Origin: a virus
Lineage: Duplodnaviria > Caudoviricetes
Reading direction: 5' to 3' (one strand)
IMG/VR virus record: IMGVR_UViG_3300026897_000030
Location: 1 to 58,150 of that record
DNA: 58,150 nt
The notes beneath the pieces are model-generated. The model worked only from the letters and a program-made list of their open reading frames with translations. It was not told where the DNA came from and searched no databases. Shown here piece after piece: positions 547 through 57,190 of the stretch (position 1 is its first letter; every line of letters starts with the position of its first letter). The translations under genes were made by a program, and so were the position numbers.

Positions 547-1095
547 CTACCGGCGCTTCGATTTTGAGTATCGGTAGGAGTTGGCGACCTGCTCAAAGAT
601 CTCTGTCCCCCAATCAAACAACATGACATTGAGGGCTCGCAAAATTATGCGGGTGTTTTCCTTCGTGTACCCACCAGACGGCACGATCTGATCTAACGAT
701 GGCATATACGGGTCGACCCGACACTTGGTGTGGGTCTTATAGAAAAACTCGATCCCCGTTATGGCACATTTGAACTGCTGACTTTCAGCCGTTGCCAGAA
801 GCCAGTCTAGGGTTAGTTCAAACGCCAAGCCACGCTTTGCTGCACGGCTGCGAGCAGATTGAAAGCAACCCTTAAGGGCCGCCTCCACACGCTGTTTTCT
901 TAGCACCACCGGAGACGGTGGCATGTCTCGGACGTGGGGTACTGGTAAACTATCGAACGCTGCCCAGTAAGCATCCATGAACTCAGGATGGTCGGGTGCT
1001 GGCAGCCTAACCCGCGATGTCTTCCCGCGCCTAAAATAGAAGGCCACGTTACCGTGCTGGGTAACCTGCCGGACGACGTATTTCGGTAGCTTCAT
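547..1095 (-). CDS. Fusion of an integrase-arm-like N-terminal domain and an HNH-like nuclease domain (182 aa)
   Basis: ATGA overlap with the int stop; N-terminus resembles the Int N-terminus; C-terminus has CAITG...PSLDQI.PSGGYTKEN.R.I...LN. Confidence 0.75.
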   Translation of the reverse strand: MKLPKYVVRQVTQHGNVAFYFRRGKTSRVRLPAPDHPEFMDAYWAAFDSLPVPHVRDMPPSPVVLRKQRVEAALKGCFQSARSRAAKRGLAFELTLDWLLATAESQQFKCAITGIEFFYKTHTKCRVDPYMPSLDQIVPSGGYTKENTRIILRALNVMLFDWGTEIFEQVANSYRYSKSKRR

Positions 1096-2120
1096 ATTGT
1101 GTCTCTCGCCAACAGGTGGCCCGCGGCGATGCCAAGACGCCGTCGATCGGCCTCCTGGATATAGTGCATAGCCATCGCCGAGCCGGTCCAGCCGAACACC
1201 GCATTCATCTGCGGGATGGTGGCGCCGTTCATCGCCATCCGGATCGCAGCGATCTTGCGAACACCGTGCGCAGACTTGTGGACACCGGCCGCGCGTGCCG
1301 CCTCGCTGAACATGTTGCCGAACCCTTCCTTGACGAGCGGGGTCCGGCGGTCGCCGCAAATGAATGTCATGTCACCGACCGGGCCAGCGGCTACGGCACG
1401 CTGGAGCTGCGGCAGGTAGGGGATGGTGACCTGGATCTTGCCTTGGCTCTTTTCCGTGCGGAAGACGATGTTGCCATCCTGAAGGTTCTGGCGCCCGAGC
1501 CGCACCGCGTCACCGCGGCGGCCGCCGGTGTTGATCAGCACCTCGAGCCACACCCGCTGCTTCGTGCCTAGCGGCCACTTCGCCTCGTAGGCTGCGACGT
1601 CTTCCTCGGTCCATGCGGCGAAGCCCGCGCCATGCGATCGCTTCGGGTTCTTCACCCCGGCGGTTGGATCAACCGACACATAGCCCTTCTCGAACGCCCA
1701 GCGGAACAGGCCGCGCATGGCGTCGAGGAAATTACGGGCTTGTGATGGTGTCGCGGCGCGGTCCTCGCGGCCATTGACGATCACGCGCTGAGTGAACTTT
1801 GCATAGGGCTGCGAGCCCGCCACCTTGTGGACGTGGCGGAAGATGTTCTCTCGCTGCCGGCGCGTTGCCTGCGACAGCGCCAGCCAGTCCTGGCTCTCAC
1901 GGTAGCGCGCCAGCAACCAGTCGAAAGTGTTGTTGGCCGGCGAGGGCTGCGTGCGCTCGAGGATCTTGCCAGCGACGGCCGCCTTGTATTCTTCCCAGAA
2001 CTCAGGCGTCCCGTAATCGGCGCGCAGCCGCACGCGCGGGCCCGGATAGACACGCACGTACCAGACGAGCTTGCCGTGCCGGGTGCGCTGGCTGTTGAGG
2101 TGTGGTGGTTTCGGGGGCAT
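1092..2120 (-). CDS. int: Tyrosine recombinase/phage integrase
   Basis: Catalytic motifs TGGRRGD (R), K in TEKS, HGVRK (H-x-x-R), FGW (W) and HY (Y); adjacent to the tRNA. Confidence 0.95.
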   Translation of the reverse strand: MPPKPPHLNSQRTRHGKLVWYVRVYPGPRVRLRADYGTPEFWEEYKAAVAGKILERTQPSPANNTFDWLLARYRESQDWLALSQATRRQRENIFRHVHKVAGSQPYAKFTQRVIVNGREDRAATPSQARNFLDAMRGLFRWAFEKGYVSVDPTAGVKNPKRSHGAGFAAWTEEDVAAYEAKWPLGTKQRVWLEVLINTGGRRGDAVRLGRQNLQDGNIVFRTEKSQGKIQVTIPYLPQLQRAVAAGPVGDMTFICGDRRTPLVKEGFGNMFSEAARAAGVHKSAHGVRKIAAIRMAMNGATIPQMNAVFGWTGSAMAMHYIQEADRRRLGIAAGHLLARDTI

Positions 2121-2125
2121 GGGGG

Positions 2126-56200: not shown

Positions 56201-57112
56201 GCCGTCCGCAACGAGAACGAGGGCGACCGCGCTGAGGCGCTCAAGACGCTGGGCTTCATCAGCGCCACCCACGTCGCCATGGCCGGCGCGCTGGGCCTGC
56301 CGACCGAGCCGTTCAAATACCTGCTGATGGGTGCCTATGCGGTGGGGCTGCCGGTGCCGTCGTGGAATGACGTCGAGCACGGTGCGCGCGAGATGGCGGC
56401 TTCGGTGTTCGGCAACACCATGGGCGAGGTGGTTACCCGCGGAGTTACCCGAGCGATCCCCGGTGGCTTCGGGTTCGACCTGTCCGGACGTATGGGGCTC
56501 GACTCGCTGATCACGTTCGGCGAGCCGCGGACCCAGGACGAGCAGGGGGTCTGGGCCTATCTCGGCAAGACGGTGGCGGGCGCGCCGGCGGCGCTTGTGG
56601 GCGACTGGCTCAAAGGCGCCTATGCGCTCGGCAGCGGGGAGTTCGCAAAGGCGGCGGAGCTGATGGTGCCGATGAAGTTCGCTGCCGACTCGATCGGCGC
56701 ATACCGTAAAGCGACCGAGGGCAAGAAGTCGGCAACGTCGGGCCGGGAGACCATGAGCCCGTACACGGCGCAGGAGGTCGGGCTACGTGCGCTTGGCTTT
56801 ACGCCCCGCCGCGAGGCTGAGAACAACGACAAGCGGTCGGCATTCTACTCGAAGCAGAAGTCGAACAAAGACGAACGCAGCGCCATGATGCGCAAGTGGA
56901 TCGACGCGCGCCCGGCGGACAAGGCAAAGGCGTTCCGTGAGATCCAGAAGTGGAATGCCGGCAAGCCGAAGGAGTCGCAGATCACCATCAAGCAGCTCAC
57001 CGACAGCGCGAAGCGCCGTGCCGACGATGCACGTAAGGCGGTGAACGGCATCGTGCCACGCAAGGGTGAGCAGGATCTTCTGAACCGGACCAGCGTCTAC
57101 AACGCGAACTAA
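50249..57112 (+). CDS. Large polyvalent ejection protein (inorganic-pyrophosphatase-like domain, zincin metallopeptidase, PLxRFG-like domain)
   Basis: PTEAQK.AGNY.KGH...IENP.G..R...HYGYI..T.GADGD.VD...FDEHK; HEGVH plus EFIAEAFSNP.FQ; PYFPLMRRG. Confidence 0.85.
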   Translation: MAEWSPSKVSSEEEDRSEEAGVGYADWASSIGVGAAQTNKMLSSAARWLAEYRGDEASEKRWKAEAELADMTREDRVAGMSEIGRRRLQAAVTSEEFWKAPGSATILKALNMTPQLAASVVPAVMFPGAGGLVGAAAIGGGMTAADVVDNIYEKVDNATDDDLKNASPFYAELREMGLDETAARRKYTATIRGYKPAVAFAVGALTAATGVAGQASRVAGGGAAALTGAGRGRLANAARAAGEGAASEFVEEGTGNALTQTALMEGGLQKEFNTREFIDASLEGALLGGVLGGGVGALSKGASSKQATAPEIEVVEPNTPNAAEAEALKASSPPPAAQPTPDPIAPEATPETGLEPTNEASMAPATELASPPIQPDIAPAGVPDAPAAAVDSAPAIPDAQAETVSQPAGTLDAPTADVTPRGNIAPEVAAPIAAPEVAPAPAEKAPKAAKAKRASKKLAEQKVAPAPAVAPAPAPVAATEGPRVLQVTTPEVEAATKAANEKIAQNIAQTEKELAGPQGEKMGKAKRAKKDADAQAAKQIFDESPSELKYPETKEAKATLKSELAAILEKAKAADIKIPTKVGYETTADHIVWLREVQTLHDKLGSKSFVGSRARDHITAFLARTAAAKGGDFSVMRSERRTEGEAAKRRDQGSVEAKAAPTTPTEAPTGDFVEMPQEATKLEADAVSTSVGKSARGAVRGLDDAAEEREVRTKDGKVEKVEGAKAASKGKVLSAEEKAEIARKLGLPVTPPERQTPVDKRKALDAVPETAGMAFNRAARQADTNPTEAQKKAGNYAKGHVRVQGLDIAIENPQGTLRRGKDRGGKEWSVRMPAHYGYIKRTAGADGDQVDIYVGPARDSDRVFVIDQVDTNTRAFDEHKAMVGFRDADHARSTYVRGFSDGLGHKRIGAITEMSMDEFKLWLKNSDTKKPLRDDTVGTRELSDQQIFDELDRLSASFEAMTDDQTLSEHEKAKKYARMATTLGEALGAAESDMTAELRNEAGAQWRLMEALYPQLRKKVASVAGDVPVYLLDPEDYARVVGQDFAGSSGVYVGKEHFIALNNKDTSGAGLAHVVLHEGVHAAFMNATWSNDKLRGMVYMMAQEAYAAADENTRKMYGFTNPDEFIAEAFSNPNFQMHLARVQASPELIKRAGLDTGRWSMWDAFLSLVARALGLPHVHKTLLHAVMRVGARLEAEAIINTGALTDEQAIGRNAELWAIPFVDRGAPNVTAALNSVQAHLGETVGELLKRPEMQEQRATPLLMKLRTMDQIAQVAGRYFRGNNPVRKIADIIEKRRIAAHSHLMKSEKVVAKLFELERKYDKVVIGKDKDGNDITQWEEFTSLVHDETMANVFADRDLKANKHLGKDTLSSTWSKAQHAALRARWAKLPADLKQARVEAMQFFTDQQNEMSLGIIKNRVLAALGIKDDALALRIHTDTLTPADEATLGDSLKVIQQAKELAKIKGPYFPLMRRGEHVVRATYKVTPPGNQPAGVRFTQSAPNVFEFSIDPAAAKSTKISVRRAARAWAASQKIRADVRSVWVDRNTGSEWVKDPTTGKDMRITSKDIDAEQRYRVTVQDEHVEFFETKNEALRAAADLEASGEFAEVKGVEPRKYESAGRQGDMLSGQMRQLVDSLKKRKGYRGMTQAQQHELIRALNEASIRFLGSTRIQSKHLPRRYVAGASSDLTQNSLEYAASTANYLAKLEHMPELYKAMQEMDDALDADKNKEASYGRRAIANEIHERVESETGFTENDKFSGVTKRLMTVSFLDKLFSPAYNIINSLQPTMVTYPVLAARYGAGRTFEVMSKAYSDIAAFDVVKKGLKNTVARAKGDINPSDFISDLKAKMKTPGERQMIDYLLERGAIDPDSGLELAQFIKAKKGALGKFDKGVSYMEGIAREMPRAIETINRAVTALAAYRLEMQRTGDQQRAMERAQEVVNNTQGLYSNTNAAPIFNHPLGKLSLQFKKYGQMMYYLLGQQIGKAVRNENEGDRAEALKTLGFISATHVAMAGALGLPTEPFKYLLMGAYAVGLPVPSWNDVEHGAREMAASVFGNTMGEVVTRGVTRAIPGGFGFDLSGRMGLDSLITFGEPRTQDEQGVWAYLGKTVAGAPAALVGDWLKGAYALGSGEFAKAAELMVPMKFAADSIGAYRKATEGKKSATSGRETMSPYTAQEVGLRALGFTPRREAENNDKRSAFYSKQKSNKDERSAMMRKWIDARPADKAKAFREIQKWNAGKPKESQITIKQLTDSAKRRADDARKAVNGIVPRKGEQDLLNRTSVYNAN

Positions 57113-57190
57113 ACAAGTTCAGAGCATATGTAACGACCAAGACACGCTCGCTGTGTAAGGGCATAGACCTATTACCCAGAGAGGTAACTC

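Follow-up and report, generated by a model that had tools for sequence, protein, structure and literature searches.

An array of 18-bp dyads across a provirus of the Rhizobium phage RHph_TM27A lineage: possible binding sites of a dimeric phage protein

Introduction

To our knowledge, most described cases in which one regulatory site is repeated over a whole genome come from actinobacteriophages. Here we analyze a palindrome, GTWACC-N6-GGTWAC (W being A or T), that is repeated throughout IMG/VR record IMGVR_UViG_3300026897_000030, a genome of the Caudoviricetes whose whole length of 58,150 bp is referred to as the window. The record is classed as a provirus, is 96% complete, and ends without host flank. 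Its array is a clean and very strong example from a proteobacterial phage, being dyad-symmetric and fused to the stop and start signals of genes. Judging from sequence comparisons, we suggest, at about even odds, that the copies are duplex-DNA binding sites of a dimeric phage-encoded protein and that they were later fused to these signals.

Several described systems resemble such an array. In the Streptomyces phage phiC31, a highly conserved inverted repeat (CIR) of about 17 bp is present at many sites of the early region and is bound by repressor c. The OB sites of IncP KorB and the operators of P1 C1 are examples in which a single regulator coordinates many operons through scattered sites, numbering at least a dozen, some of which lie in genes or far from promoters. 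These two networks have far fewer sites than the window, and KorB sites are not combined with stop or Shine-Dalgarno (SD) signals.

In Cluster A mycobacteriophages, the stoperators are described as 20 to 30 dispersed sites, mostly intergenic and in some cases at promoters, with a consensus that varies among relatives (PMC6550527). The account of the SAS and ESAS repeats of Cluster K mycobacteriophages gives an SD-containing repeat a few bases upstream of many starts and, in ESAS, an inverted repeat, with a consensus that differs between subclusters (PMC3203893). No published description of the present motif was found in the literature searched, supplements and the primary RHph phage papers lying outside that search.

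Number, spacing, and symmetry of the copies

The window contains 39 perfect copies of the motif in 58 kb, compared with none in 100 dinucleotide shuffles. When one mismatch was allowed, the number rose to 53 (39 perfect and 14 one-mismatch copies), against a shuffle mean of 0.10 and a maximum of 1, and a further 8 copies had two mismatches, where 2.6 were expected. All 39 perfect and all 13 one-mismatch copies listed in an initial annotation of this DNA were recovered; one more one-mismatch copy, at 38864, had been missed there.

The distance between the two arms is rigid. The core TWACC-Nx-GGTWA was found 43 times at x = 6, 3 times at x = 5, and twice at x = 8, and it did not occur at x = 2, 3, 4, 7, 9, or 10. 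Among the 81 GGTWAC hexamers of the window, about half have a partner arm at exactly the motif distance. The initial annotation had considered that the enrichment might come from the composition of SD sequences, but a core count of 43 at a spacing of 6 bp versus 0 to 3 otherwise means that the dyad is not a by-product of that composition. Some copies share an arm with a two-mismatch copy located exactly 13 bp away (40466/40479/40492, 23190/23203, 10425/10438, and 19271/19284).

Oriented with local transcription, the logo of the copies reads GTWACC-YYGCRR-GGTAAC. The spacer, which had been described as varying freely, has a palindromic consensus, YYGCRR, with G at position 9 in 35, C at position 10 in 30, and A at position 12 in 33 of the 53 copies. 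Since the spacer is weakly palindromic itself, the site is a dyad through its centre, with GTTACC-YYGCRR-GGTAAC as the full consensus. In the flanks beyond the 18-mer, no conservation was found. Of the 53 copies, 43 have GGTAAC as the right arm; on the left, 23 have GTAACC and 30 have GTTACC.

The two W positions combine on the plus strand as (T,A) in 14, (T,T) in 13, (A,A) in 12, and (A,T) in none of the 39 perfect copies; when oriented with transcription, the numbers are 18 for A/A, 14 for T/A, 7 for T/T, and 0 for A/T. Both letters do occur in each arm, as had been reported, but the missing (A,T) combination means that the arms are not fully independent in this respect. The upstream gene ends at the left-arm TAA in 10 of the 18 A/A copies, and once these are removed, A/A and T/T are left with 8 and 7 copies, which indicates that the motif has no intrinsic orientation. 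Perfect palindromes account for 14 of the 39 perfect copies.

Two minor leads were set aside. A variant GTWACT-N6-AGTWAC, hinted at by single copies, forms no family (0 to 1 per genome), and an apparent likeness of some copies to a 3′ segment of 16S rRNA was dropped as coincidence.

Selection on the nucleotide sequence

Nine perfect copies are located within coding sequences (CDSs). When synonymous codons were shuffled within each gene 300 times, the number averaged 0.34 and never rose above 3, so that the observed number exceeds every codon-preserving shuffle. It had been noted that the copies within genes often encode V-T-x-x-G-N; this is correct for the copies at 5779, 46148, 51500, and 54698, but that at 4970 is read as L-P-G-Q-V-T. 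All eight V-T-x-x-G-N hexapeptides in the proteome of the window are encoded exactly as the motif, whereas codon usage (GTT 15% and GTA 5% of valine codons, GGT 20% of glycine codons) predicts this for about 1.5% per peptide. In the primase gene, one copy is common to the window and the related prophage of host genome G003 at the same residues, and the primase gene of the Rhizobium phage RHph_TM27A (TM27A) has copies at other positions, where the window has unrelated codons. The selected thing is the nucleotide sequence and not the peptide, and copies have been gained independently within long genes.

Host genomes and related phages

Three host genomes with related prophages, 19.9 Mb in total, contain 17 copies, 16 of which are on prophage-related contigs. 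Genome G001 (7.9 Mb) has 5 copies, divided between the contig with the capsid gene and a second contig with early genes. Genome G003 (3.3 Mb) has 11 copies, all on the prophage's contig at 51-102 kb. The single copy of genome G002 (8.7 Mb) is outside the prophage contig and is at the level of the control, in which the pattern read backwards gave 2 copies per host genome. The initial annotation had raised the possibility that the motif is equally frequent in the host genome, and these counts show that it is not; nor was a spread through the chromosome, as REP/MITE-like palindromes would show, seen in the three genomes.

The closest named relatives of the window phage are the Rhizobium phages RHph_TM27A/B, TM29, and TM3_14A, with amino acid identities of 75% for the capsid protein and 46% for the primase. 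Capsid relatives are also present in Bradyrhizobium and Xanthobacteraceae genomes, and at least 595 matching stretches exist in IMG/VR. The IMG/VR relatives were gathered with the capsid protein as the query, and 14 longer ones were scored for the motif. A related-locus search of viral contigs with the candidate binding protein discussed below and the VWA protein as queries gave no matches, and a search for near-identical phage DNA found none.

TM27A carries 20 perfect and 18 one-mismatch copies, among which the perfect palindrome GTTACC...GGTAAC dominates, and several are at places orthologous to those in the window, namely next to the end of the capsid gene and a short way upstream of the portal gene. 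The motif is carried by 9 of the 14 scored relatives, with 25, 14, 12, 12, 11, 8, 4, 3, and 1 strict copies; the other five have none. In G010, the relaxed core reaches 62 copies, and in G014, it occurs once, with 0 strict and 0 N5 copies. The prophage of G002 is dominated by a degenerate junction form, xTAACC-N6-GGTAAC-N1-4-ATG, in which TAA is the stop codon.

The spacing of the arms differs among these phages. G015 has the same arms at a 5-bp spacing (23 core copies at N5 versus 1 at N6, and no strict N6 copies), and its N5 copies are almost all in the early region; in G004, the form is TTACT-N5-AGTAA. A spacing that is constant within a genome and shifted between genomes fits the geometry of a dimer. 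Two more distant capsid relatives have palindromes that are unrelated to the motif. L011, a metagenome-assembled genome (MAG) of Rhodospirillales, has its own palindrome, TTGCTC-N4-GAGCAA, in about 6 copies in 21 kb, and L013, a Betaproteobacteria MAG, has ACTACTGTAGT in 4 exact copies and 2 variants in 17 kb.

Gene context of the copies

The genes of the window diverge, a leftward arm starting at about 22.6 kb and a rightward arm at about 23.3 kb. The former contains small early open reading frames (ORFs) and genes for a MoxR-like ATPase, a DUF2201 VWA/metallopeptidase protein, an SNF2 helicase fragment, a DUF927 primase-helicase, and a tyrosine integrase (1092-2120). The rightward arm encodes the portal, the major capsid protein, tail proteins, and a 2287-aa DarB-like virion protein, and the large terminase gene is on the minus strand. 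With 33 early and 20 late copies, sites occur roughly every 0.7 kb in the early arm and every 1.75 kb in the late arm; the gaps between copies have a median of 762 bp and a maximum of 3.5 kb (Table 1).

The context counts are based on an approximate list of 73 ORFs, made from third-position GC and homology, in which some calls in 15.6-17.4 kb are uncertain. By this list, 24 of the 53 copies are at most 20 nt upstream of a start codon (16 of them at most 5 nt), 15 have a stop codon inside, and 11 are associated with a stop only. Gene-boundary copies number 35 of 53. At these junctions, the purine-rich end of the spacer together with GGT makes up the SD sequence. The 18 copies with neither a start nor a stop comprise 9 that are purely inside a CDS and 9 that are otherwise intergenic, including one after the integrase gene, which is the last of the leftward operon, and several in the divergent non-coding control region. 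The copy at 27314 does lie between convergent genes, as had been stated.

Table 1. Positions of the motif copies in the window and of the gene for the candidate binding protein (empty strand cell, no strand given)
Feature	Position	Strand	Context
Perfect	1048..1065		27 nt past integrase gene end; not at start
Perfect	2608..2625	-	1 nt before ATG of 2223-2606
Perfect	4970..4987		In primase/helicase CDS, frame L-P-G-Q-V-T
Perfect	5779..5796		In primase CDS, V-T-A-L-G-N; same position in G003 prophage
One-mismatch	7398..7415	-	Between 7424-7966 and 6225-7382
Perfect	7968..7985	-	Contains stop of HNH gene 7969-8412; 1 nt before ATG of 7424-7966
One-mismatch	9958..9975	-	1 nt before ATG of 9501-9956
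One-mismatch	10425..10442		Spacer TTGCAA; two-mismatch copy 13 bp off at 10438
Perfect	10899..10916	-	1 nt before ATG of 10547-10897
Perfect	12335..12352	-	Spacer holds stop of 12341-12652; 1 nt before ATG of VWA/metallopeptidase gene 11083-12333
One-mismatch	12922..12939	-	Past stop of 12948-13526
Perfect	13596..13613	-	Left-arm TAA is stop of ATPase gene 13610-14725
One-mismatch	14758..14775	-	Past stop of 14779-15078
Perfect	15089..15106	-	10 nt before ATG of 14779-15078
Perfect	15868..15885		Intergenic; no start or stop adjoining in ORF list
Perfect	16403..16420	-	Stop and start junction; in ~40-bp direct repeat with 16561
Perfect	16561..16578	-	Stop and start junction; repeat partner of 16403
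Perfect	17020..17037		
Perfect	17344..17361		
One-mismatch	17744..17761	-	1 nt before ATG of 17554-17742
Perfect	18111..18128	-	Junction: stop of 18125-18406, start of 17761-18105
Perfect	18437..18454		In small ORF 18428-18601, V-T-T-E-G-N
Perfect	18603..18620	-	1 nt before ATG of 18428-18601
Perfect	18910..18927	-	Contains stop of 18924-19091
One-mismatch	19271..19288	-	Just past stop of candidate gene 19298-20137; two-mismatch neighbour 19284
Perfect	20154..20171	-	16 nt upstream of ATG 20137 of candidate gene
Perfect	20453..20470	-	Contains stop of 20467-20715
Perfect	21214..21231		Intergenic, ~70 nt upstream of 20731-21144
Perfect	21977..21994	-	Right-arm TAA is stop of 21978-22250
One-mismatch	22304..22321	-	Contains stop of 22305-22598
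Perfect	22602..22619	-	3 nt before ATG of 22305-22598, first gene of leftward operon
Perfect	22879..22896		In ~600-bp non-coding divergent control region
N5-spaced core variant TTACC-N5-GGTAA	23088..23102		Divergent control region
One-mismatch	23203..23220		Spacer TTGCAA read by eye as -35; two-mismatch neighbour 23190
Perfect	24831..24848		In 24417-24863, V-T-A-R-G-N; 20 nt before next start
Perfect	25567..25584	+	Straight after TAA stop; 1 nt before ATG 25586
Perfect	27314..27331		Between convergent 26979-27317 (+) and terminase 27331-28770 (-)
Perfect	29355..29372	+	4 nt before portal ATG 29377; TM27A copy 14 nt before its portal gene
Perfect	31428..31445	+	Left-arm TAA is portal stop
Perfect	32583..32600		Intergenic
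Perfect	33793..33810	+	Straight after stop of 32689-33792; 33 nt before capsid gene
Perfect	34833..34850	+	2 nt past major capsid stop; orthologous copy abuts TM27A capsid gene end
Perfect	36243..36260	+	Contains stop of 35863-36246
One-mismatch	38178..38195	+	Between 37356-38177 and 38210-39037
One-mismatch	38864..38881		In 38210-39037; absent from initial annotation
One-mismatch	40466..40483		First of three arm-sharing sites at 13-bp offsets (40466/40479/40492)
Perfect	40479..40496	+	15 nt before ATG 40512
Perfect	42870..42887	+	Junction: stop of 42415-42873; 3 nt before ATG 42891
Perfect	46148..46165		In 45893-46330, V-T-R-S-G-N
One-mismatch	47438..47455	+	Junction: stop of 46284-47441; 1 nt before ATG of HNH gene 47457-48077
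Perfect	48027..48044		In 3′ end of 47457-48077, V-T-R-Q-G-N; 23 nt before ATG 48068
Perfect	51500..51517		In 2287-aa virion protein gene, V-T-P-R-G-N
Perfect	54698..54715		In 2287-aa virion protein gene, V-T-P-P-G-N
One-mismatch	57171..57188	+	2 nt before GTG start of HNH gene 57191-57655
Candidate binder gene	19298-20137	-	255 aa from ATG 20065, 279 aa from 20137

Binding by a dimeric protein

If the copies are binding sites, each subunit of the protein would read one half-site, GGTAAC outward from the centre, with the half-sites at a fixed 6-bp spacing and either A or T tolerated at the central position of each arm. The array would have been built up across the whole genome, and because 18 bases are hard to fit in coding sequence, most copies would have settled in the tiny intergenic gaps. 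At the junctions, the palindrome would then have been co-opted, with G-TAA-CC or GG-TAA-C serving as a stop codon and RR-GGT as an SD sequence 5 to 9 nt before the next ATG. The bound protein would most likely be a genome-wide transcription regulator during infection, with the sites serving as operators at promoters, where one copy appears to overlap a -35 element, and, between genes, as places of roadblock or modulation. Such an action would be stoperator-like but not limited to lysogeny.

The initial annotation had proposed an operator network of a dimeric protein that could silence the prophage gene by gene, compact it, or mark it as self. The array of dimeric sites is the best supported part of this proposal, being favoured by the dyad symmetry that includes the centre, the fixed spacing, the conservation of sequence without covariation, the tolerance of A or T at W, the near-absence from host chromosomes, and the convergent gain of copies within coding sequences, and the silencing is weakened by the relatives. 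A tyrosine integrase (PF00589) is present in the window, G015, and G016, and was not found in TM27A, G009 to G013, G014, or G017, serine recombinases not having been searched for. TM27A and G009 to G013 are thus six complete motif-bearing genomes, with 8 to 25 strict copies, that lack a tyrosine integrase, and G011 and G012 have direct terminal repeats. This suggests that the array is not tied to lysogeny and that prophage silencing is not its core function. The lytic derivative D29 is reported to keep the stoperators of its parent (PMC5712189), so a missing integrase does not in itself kill a repressor model. However, six of nine genomes without an integrase are too many for recent deletion derivatives, which places the function in lytic development. 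In the TM27A record MN988461.1, the product annotated as a “putative integrase protein” (L002 12248-15331) is a homologue of the DUF927 primase-helicase, no PF00589 integrase was found in the record, and this annotation looks wrong.

As the protein that binds the array, the leading but weak candidate is the 255-aa early protein encoded at 19298-20065(-), to which we would give about one chance in three. The helix-turn-helix (HTH)-like ORFs of the window, which had been put forward initially, are 2223-2606 (DnaA_C HTH), 2641-3120 (weak Trans_reg_C), and 24417-24863 (weak HTH_17), and none of them is kept in all motif-bearing relatives. The region 19298-20137, which was on the same initial list, is conserved in all motif-bearing relatives examined. 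The only early genes that are present in TM27A, G003, G002, G010, and G015 but not in G014 are this one and 12656-12889, which encodes an acidic 77-aa protein. Among the conserved genes of the early operon, the candidate gene comes first, and the copies at 20154 and 19271 lie on either side of it. Its TM27A homologue is annotated as EVB29_028. Its family (A1) comprises at least 267 clusters at 50% identity, and a profile search detected a homologue in 8 of the 9 complete IMG/VR relatives, the exception being G014. No homologue was found in G005 to G008, more distant capsid relatives whose 17-21-kb capsid loci are without the strict motif, or in the L011 and L013 genomes.

The candidate is predicted with confidence to be all-helical (pLDDT 90). 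The prediction of a two-copy complex gave a median of 0.39 against a mark of 0.42 and counts neither for nor against dimerization. A PDB sequence profile was uninformative (best E 0.055, coiled-coil-like), and a search of BFVD returned only uncharacterised phage homologues. The Atlas feature score to a cluster of PF25746, the family of the phiC31 repressor c, was 0.82 and sub-threshold.

Several observations weigh against the binding-site interpretation or against this candidate. The 24 copies just before starts include the SD sequence and would also be explained by a function at the level of RNA or translation. The promoter overlap of the 23203 copy is an eye reading, in which the spacer TTGCAA, with TATATA about 17 nt further on, is taken as the -35 element of a sigma-70-like promoter directed at the rightward operon, and a promoter consensus scan did not call this element. 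The scan of 19-26 kb for promoters and terminators was at chance level, and no conserved -10 or other element was found beside the motif. Among the window proteins, no binding protein was identified. The candidate has no Pfam match at E ≤ 0.01 or at E ≤ 0.1, Pfam being uninformative for 92 family members as well, and no PHROG match. It also has no informative structural neighbour (the best Foldseek PDB hit had E 0.4, and the best VIA hit, with Z 7.0, is helical-bundle noise), and its family is acidic, with a median isoelectric point of 5.5. The correlation of presence and absence rests on one negative genome, G014, which has diverged further than any other (most shared proteins are 27-43% identical; capsid, portal, and terminase reach 59-71%). 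G017 has a divergent homologue but only 1+1 copies, and in G018 and G020, which have many copies, no homologue was detected, but these genomes are incomplete and may encode it in the part that is missing.

Alternative explanations

The alternative that survives best, although we consider it unlikely, is an element of the mRNA, in which a hairpin would hide the SD sequence and would be opened by a ribosome terminating at the left arm (translational coupling) or bound by a translational regulator of the phage. The SD formed by the spacer and GGT, the copies placed before starts or containing a stop, and the junction form that dominates the G002 prophage are all in agreement with it, and the SAS/ESAS repeats of Cluster K mycobacteriophages, as described, would be a precedent (PMC3203893). 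As isolated 18-mer RNAs, perfect T/A copies fold at -5.5 to -9.1 kcal/mol, but 32 of the 53 copies fold weaker than -3 kcal/mol. All six pairs are possible in only 15 of 53 copies, and the central pair 3-16 is unpaired in 31. The arm pairs 1, 2, 4, 5, and 6 each have a single pair type in 48-52 of the 53 copies, and no compensatory (double-sided) change was found at any arm pair, so that the arm sequence is conserved and not the pairing. A hairpin could act at the junction copies, but it leaves without explanation the 18 copies that are near neither a start nor a stop, including the 9 within CDSs that are under selection. The degenerate W, the spacing (a loop length that is rigid within a genome), and the palindromic centre are not needed by a structural hairpin and favour a dimeric binder of duplex DNA.

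A second and rather doubtful possibility is that the two functions are combined, with the same 18 bases serving in the DNA as the operator of an early protein of novel fold and in the mRNA as the stop codon and ribosome-binding site. If this were true, a single factor, the first to be made in infection, could hold back both the passage of transcription across almost all gene boundaries and the initiation of translation there. Genes would be timed one by one over the whole genome in this large lineage of alphaproteobacterial phages, most of them non-temperate, with a specificity that evolves by the spacing of the half-sites (N6 to N5).

It is improbable that the array is a non-transcriptional mark of the genome, used for phage-specific nicking or base modification, for condensation or ParB/KorB-like partition bridging, or for self-recognition against nucleases of the phage itself or of the host. 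Such a mark would account for the spread over the whole genome, long CDSs included, with its short gaps, and for the occurrence in apparently non-temperate relatives, and there is a weak structural lead in Atlas from the candidate to ParB-HTH clusters (TM score 0.35, under the bar of the tool). However, no ParB-family sequence match was found: none of the 40 window ORFs scanned matched a ParB Pfam family, and VIA listed no ParB. The phages have no common methyltransferase, that of TM27A being without a counterpart in the window. In addition, the copies of G003 and G015 (strict, N5) and of G001 (strict, one-mismatch) cluster in the early region and hardly occur in those structural genes that were examined, which argues against a role in packaging, in condensation, or in protection of the whole genome.

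We find it still harder to regard the motif as a recombination linker or mobile junction cassette, serving module exchange or as the homing target of the HNH/Endonuclease VII genes. A copy lies directly before four of the five Endonuclease-VII-like paralogues and at or near the 3′ end of three, a 40-bp direct repeat that includes the motif surrounds a small ORF (16403/16561), and the small early ORFs between copies vary among relatives. Deletions in Cluster A mycobacteriophages are described as arising by recombination between stoperators (PMC5712189). Nevertheless, 18 bp is short for homologous exchange, the flanks outside the 18-mer are not conserved, and the copies within genes arose independently at differing positions of long conserved genes. 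The variable spacer between conserved arms, the fixed spacing, and the switch of a lineage to N5 point to recognition by a protein. TM27A, with 38 copies, has but one annotated HNH gene and no match to the Endonuclease VII paralogues of the window.

Finally, a site of a host transcription factor exploited by the phage is very unlikely, since the host chromosomes are essentially devoid of the motif (1 of 17 copies in 19.9 Mb is outside prophage-related contigs, with 2 per genome in the reversed-pattern control) and the spacing differs among phages (N6 versus N5), although no phage binder could be named and the named hosts of the relatives are related Hyphomicrobiales.

Comparison with described systems

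Like the stoperators of Cluster A phages, which are bound by the L5 gp71-type repressor, the array consists of dozens of one short site over early and late operons, mostly in short intergenic gaps and with few at promoters (PMC6550527, PMC5712189, PMC9283540), and its consensus also differs among related phages. The stoperators are 13-14 bp without dyad symmetry, are oriented with transcription, and are bound by a monomer of the immunity repressor. The motif, in contrast, is an 18-bp dyad without orientation bias once the use as a stop codon is removed, no immunity repressor is linked to it, and most complete relatives are without a tyrosine integrase. The hosts also differ, being alphaproteobacteria here and mycobacteria there, and the virion genes of the window phage look podovirus-like.

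The motif shares with SAS/ESAS its position on ribosome-binding sites. However, SAS is asymmetric, 13 bp long, and present in 11-19 copies in one orientation, whereas the motif is symmetric and, of its 53 copies, just 24 lie 20 nt or less from a start. SAS is also restricted to non-structural genes, and 20 copies of the motif are in the late, structural arm, although an SAS-like restriction holds roughly in G003 and G015. ESAS has imperfect arms of 17 bp and a variable spacer of 4-13 bp, compared with arms of 6 bp and a spacer fixed at 6 bp in the motif. In the window, moreover, 18 copies have no association with a start or stop.

The phiC31 system differs from the window in host phylum, the only link to it being the Atlas score of the candidate given above. 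In comparison with KorB and P1 C1, no ParB-family or C1-family protein was detected here.

The lineage concerned is large, with the at least 595 capsid relatives detected in IMG/VR, 14 of which were scored. The motif is also present in the culturable RHph_TM27A, a phage of Rhizobium phaseoli, and is hence directly testable. If the 255-aa protein is the binder, a family of at least 267 unannotated clusters would gain a function, and the identity of the binder could show how these phages time their expression without an RNA polymerase of their own. The motif can also serve as a practical marker for prophages of this lineage in Bradyrhizobium and Rhizobium genomes.

Other features of the genome

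No RNA polymerase was detected in the window. The idea of a phage RNA polymerase with hairpin promoters was dropped, as the 2287-aa virion protein matches DarB-like and transglycosylase families and not RNA polymerase. Among sequencing runs, a search listed the probable source metagenome alone and no RNA data set.

Five paralogous free-standing Endonuclease VII/HNH genes are present in the two arms, at 7969-8412(-), 9953-10447(-), 23259-23684(+), 47457-48077(+), and 57191-57655(+), and look like homing endonuclease genes. All five match one stretch of the relative L006, and 23259-23684 matches Pfam PF02945. A sixth, small HNH ORF is located at 57582-57923(+).

Between the divergent operons, about 600 bp (22620-23250) have no convincing ORF and hold four motif-type sites, and this stretch may be a control region or origin. 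The GC content is lower over 20-24 kb (0.54-0.56). A near-identical 19-mer, AAAAACCYTTTGTTACTTC, is found at 23168-23186 and 23735-23753, on either side of the HNH gene 23259-23684, and the pair could be a regulatory segment duplicated by insertion of the endonuclease gene.

In the early arm, a DNA polymerase I homologue is cut to its first ~150 residues (9501-9956, within 8396-9956(-)) and is directly followed by the C-terminal two thirds only of the SNF2 helicase (8396-9445). In TM27A, the corresponding points are separated by about 5.7 kb, including the rest of the polymerase and RecB-like and VRR-NUC genes. The region thus looks like a deletion, and the provirus may be replication-defective.

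The ~40-bp direct repeat at 16380-16620 consists of the motif and 22 flanking bases, with one difference between the two units, which are 158 bp apart around a 46-codon ORF. The upstream genes of both units end in the same codons, and the arrangement looks like the duplication of a junction.

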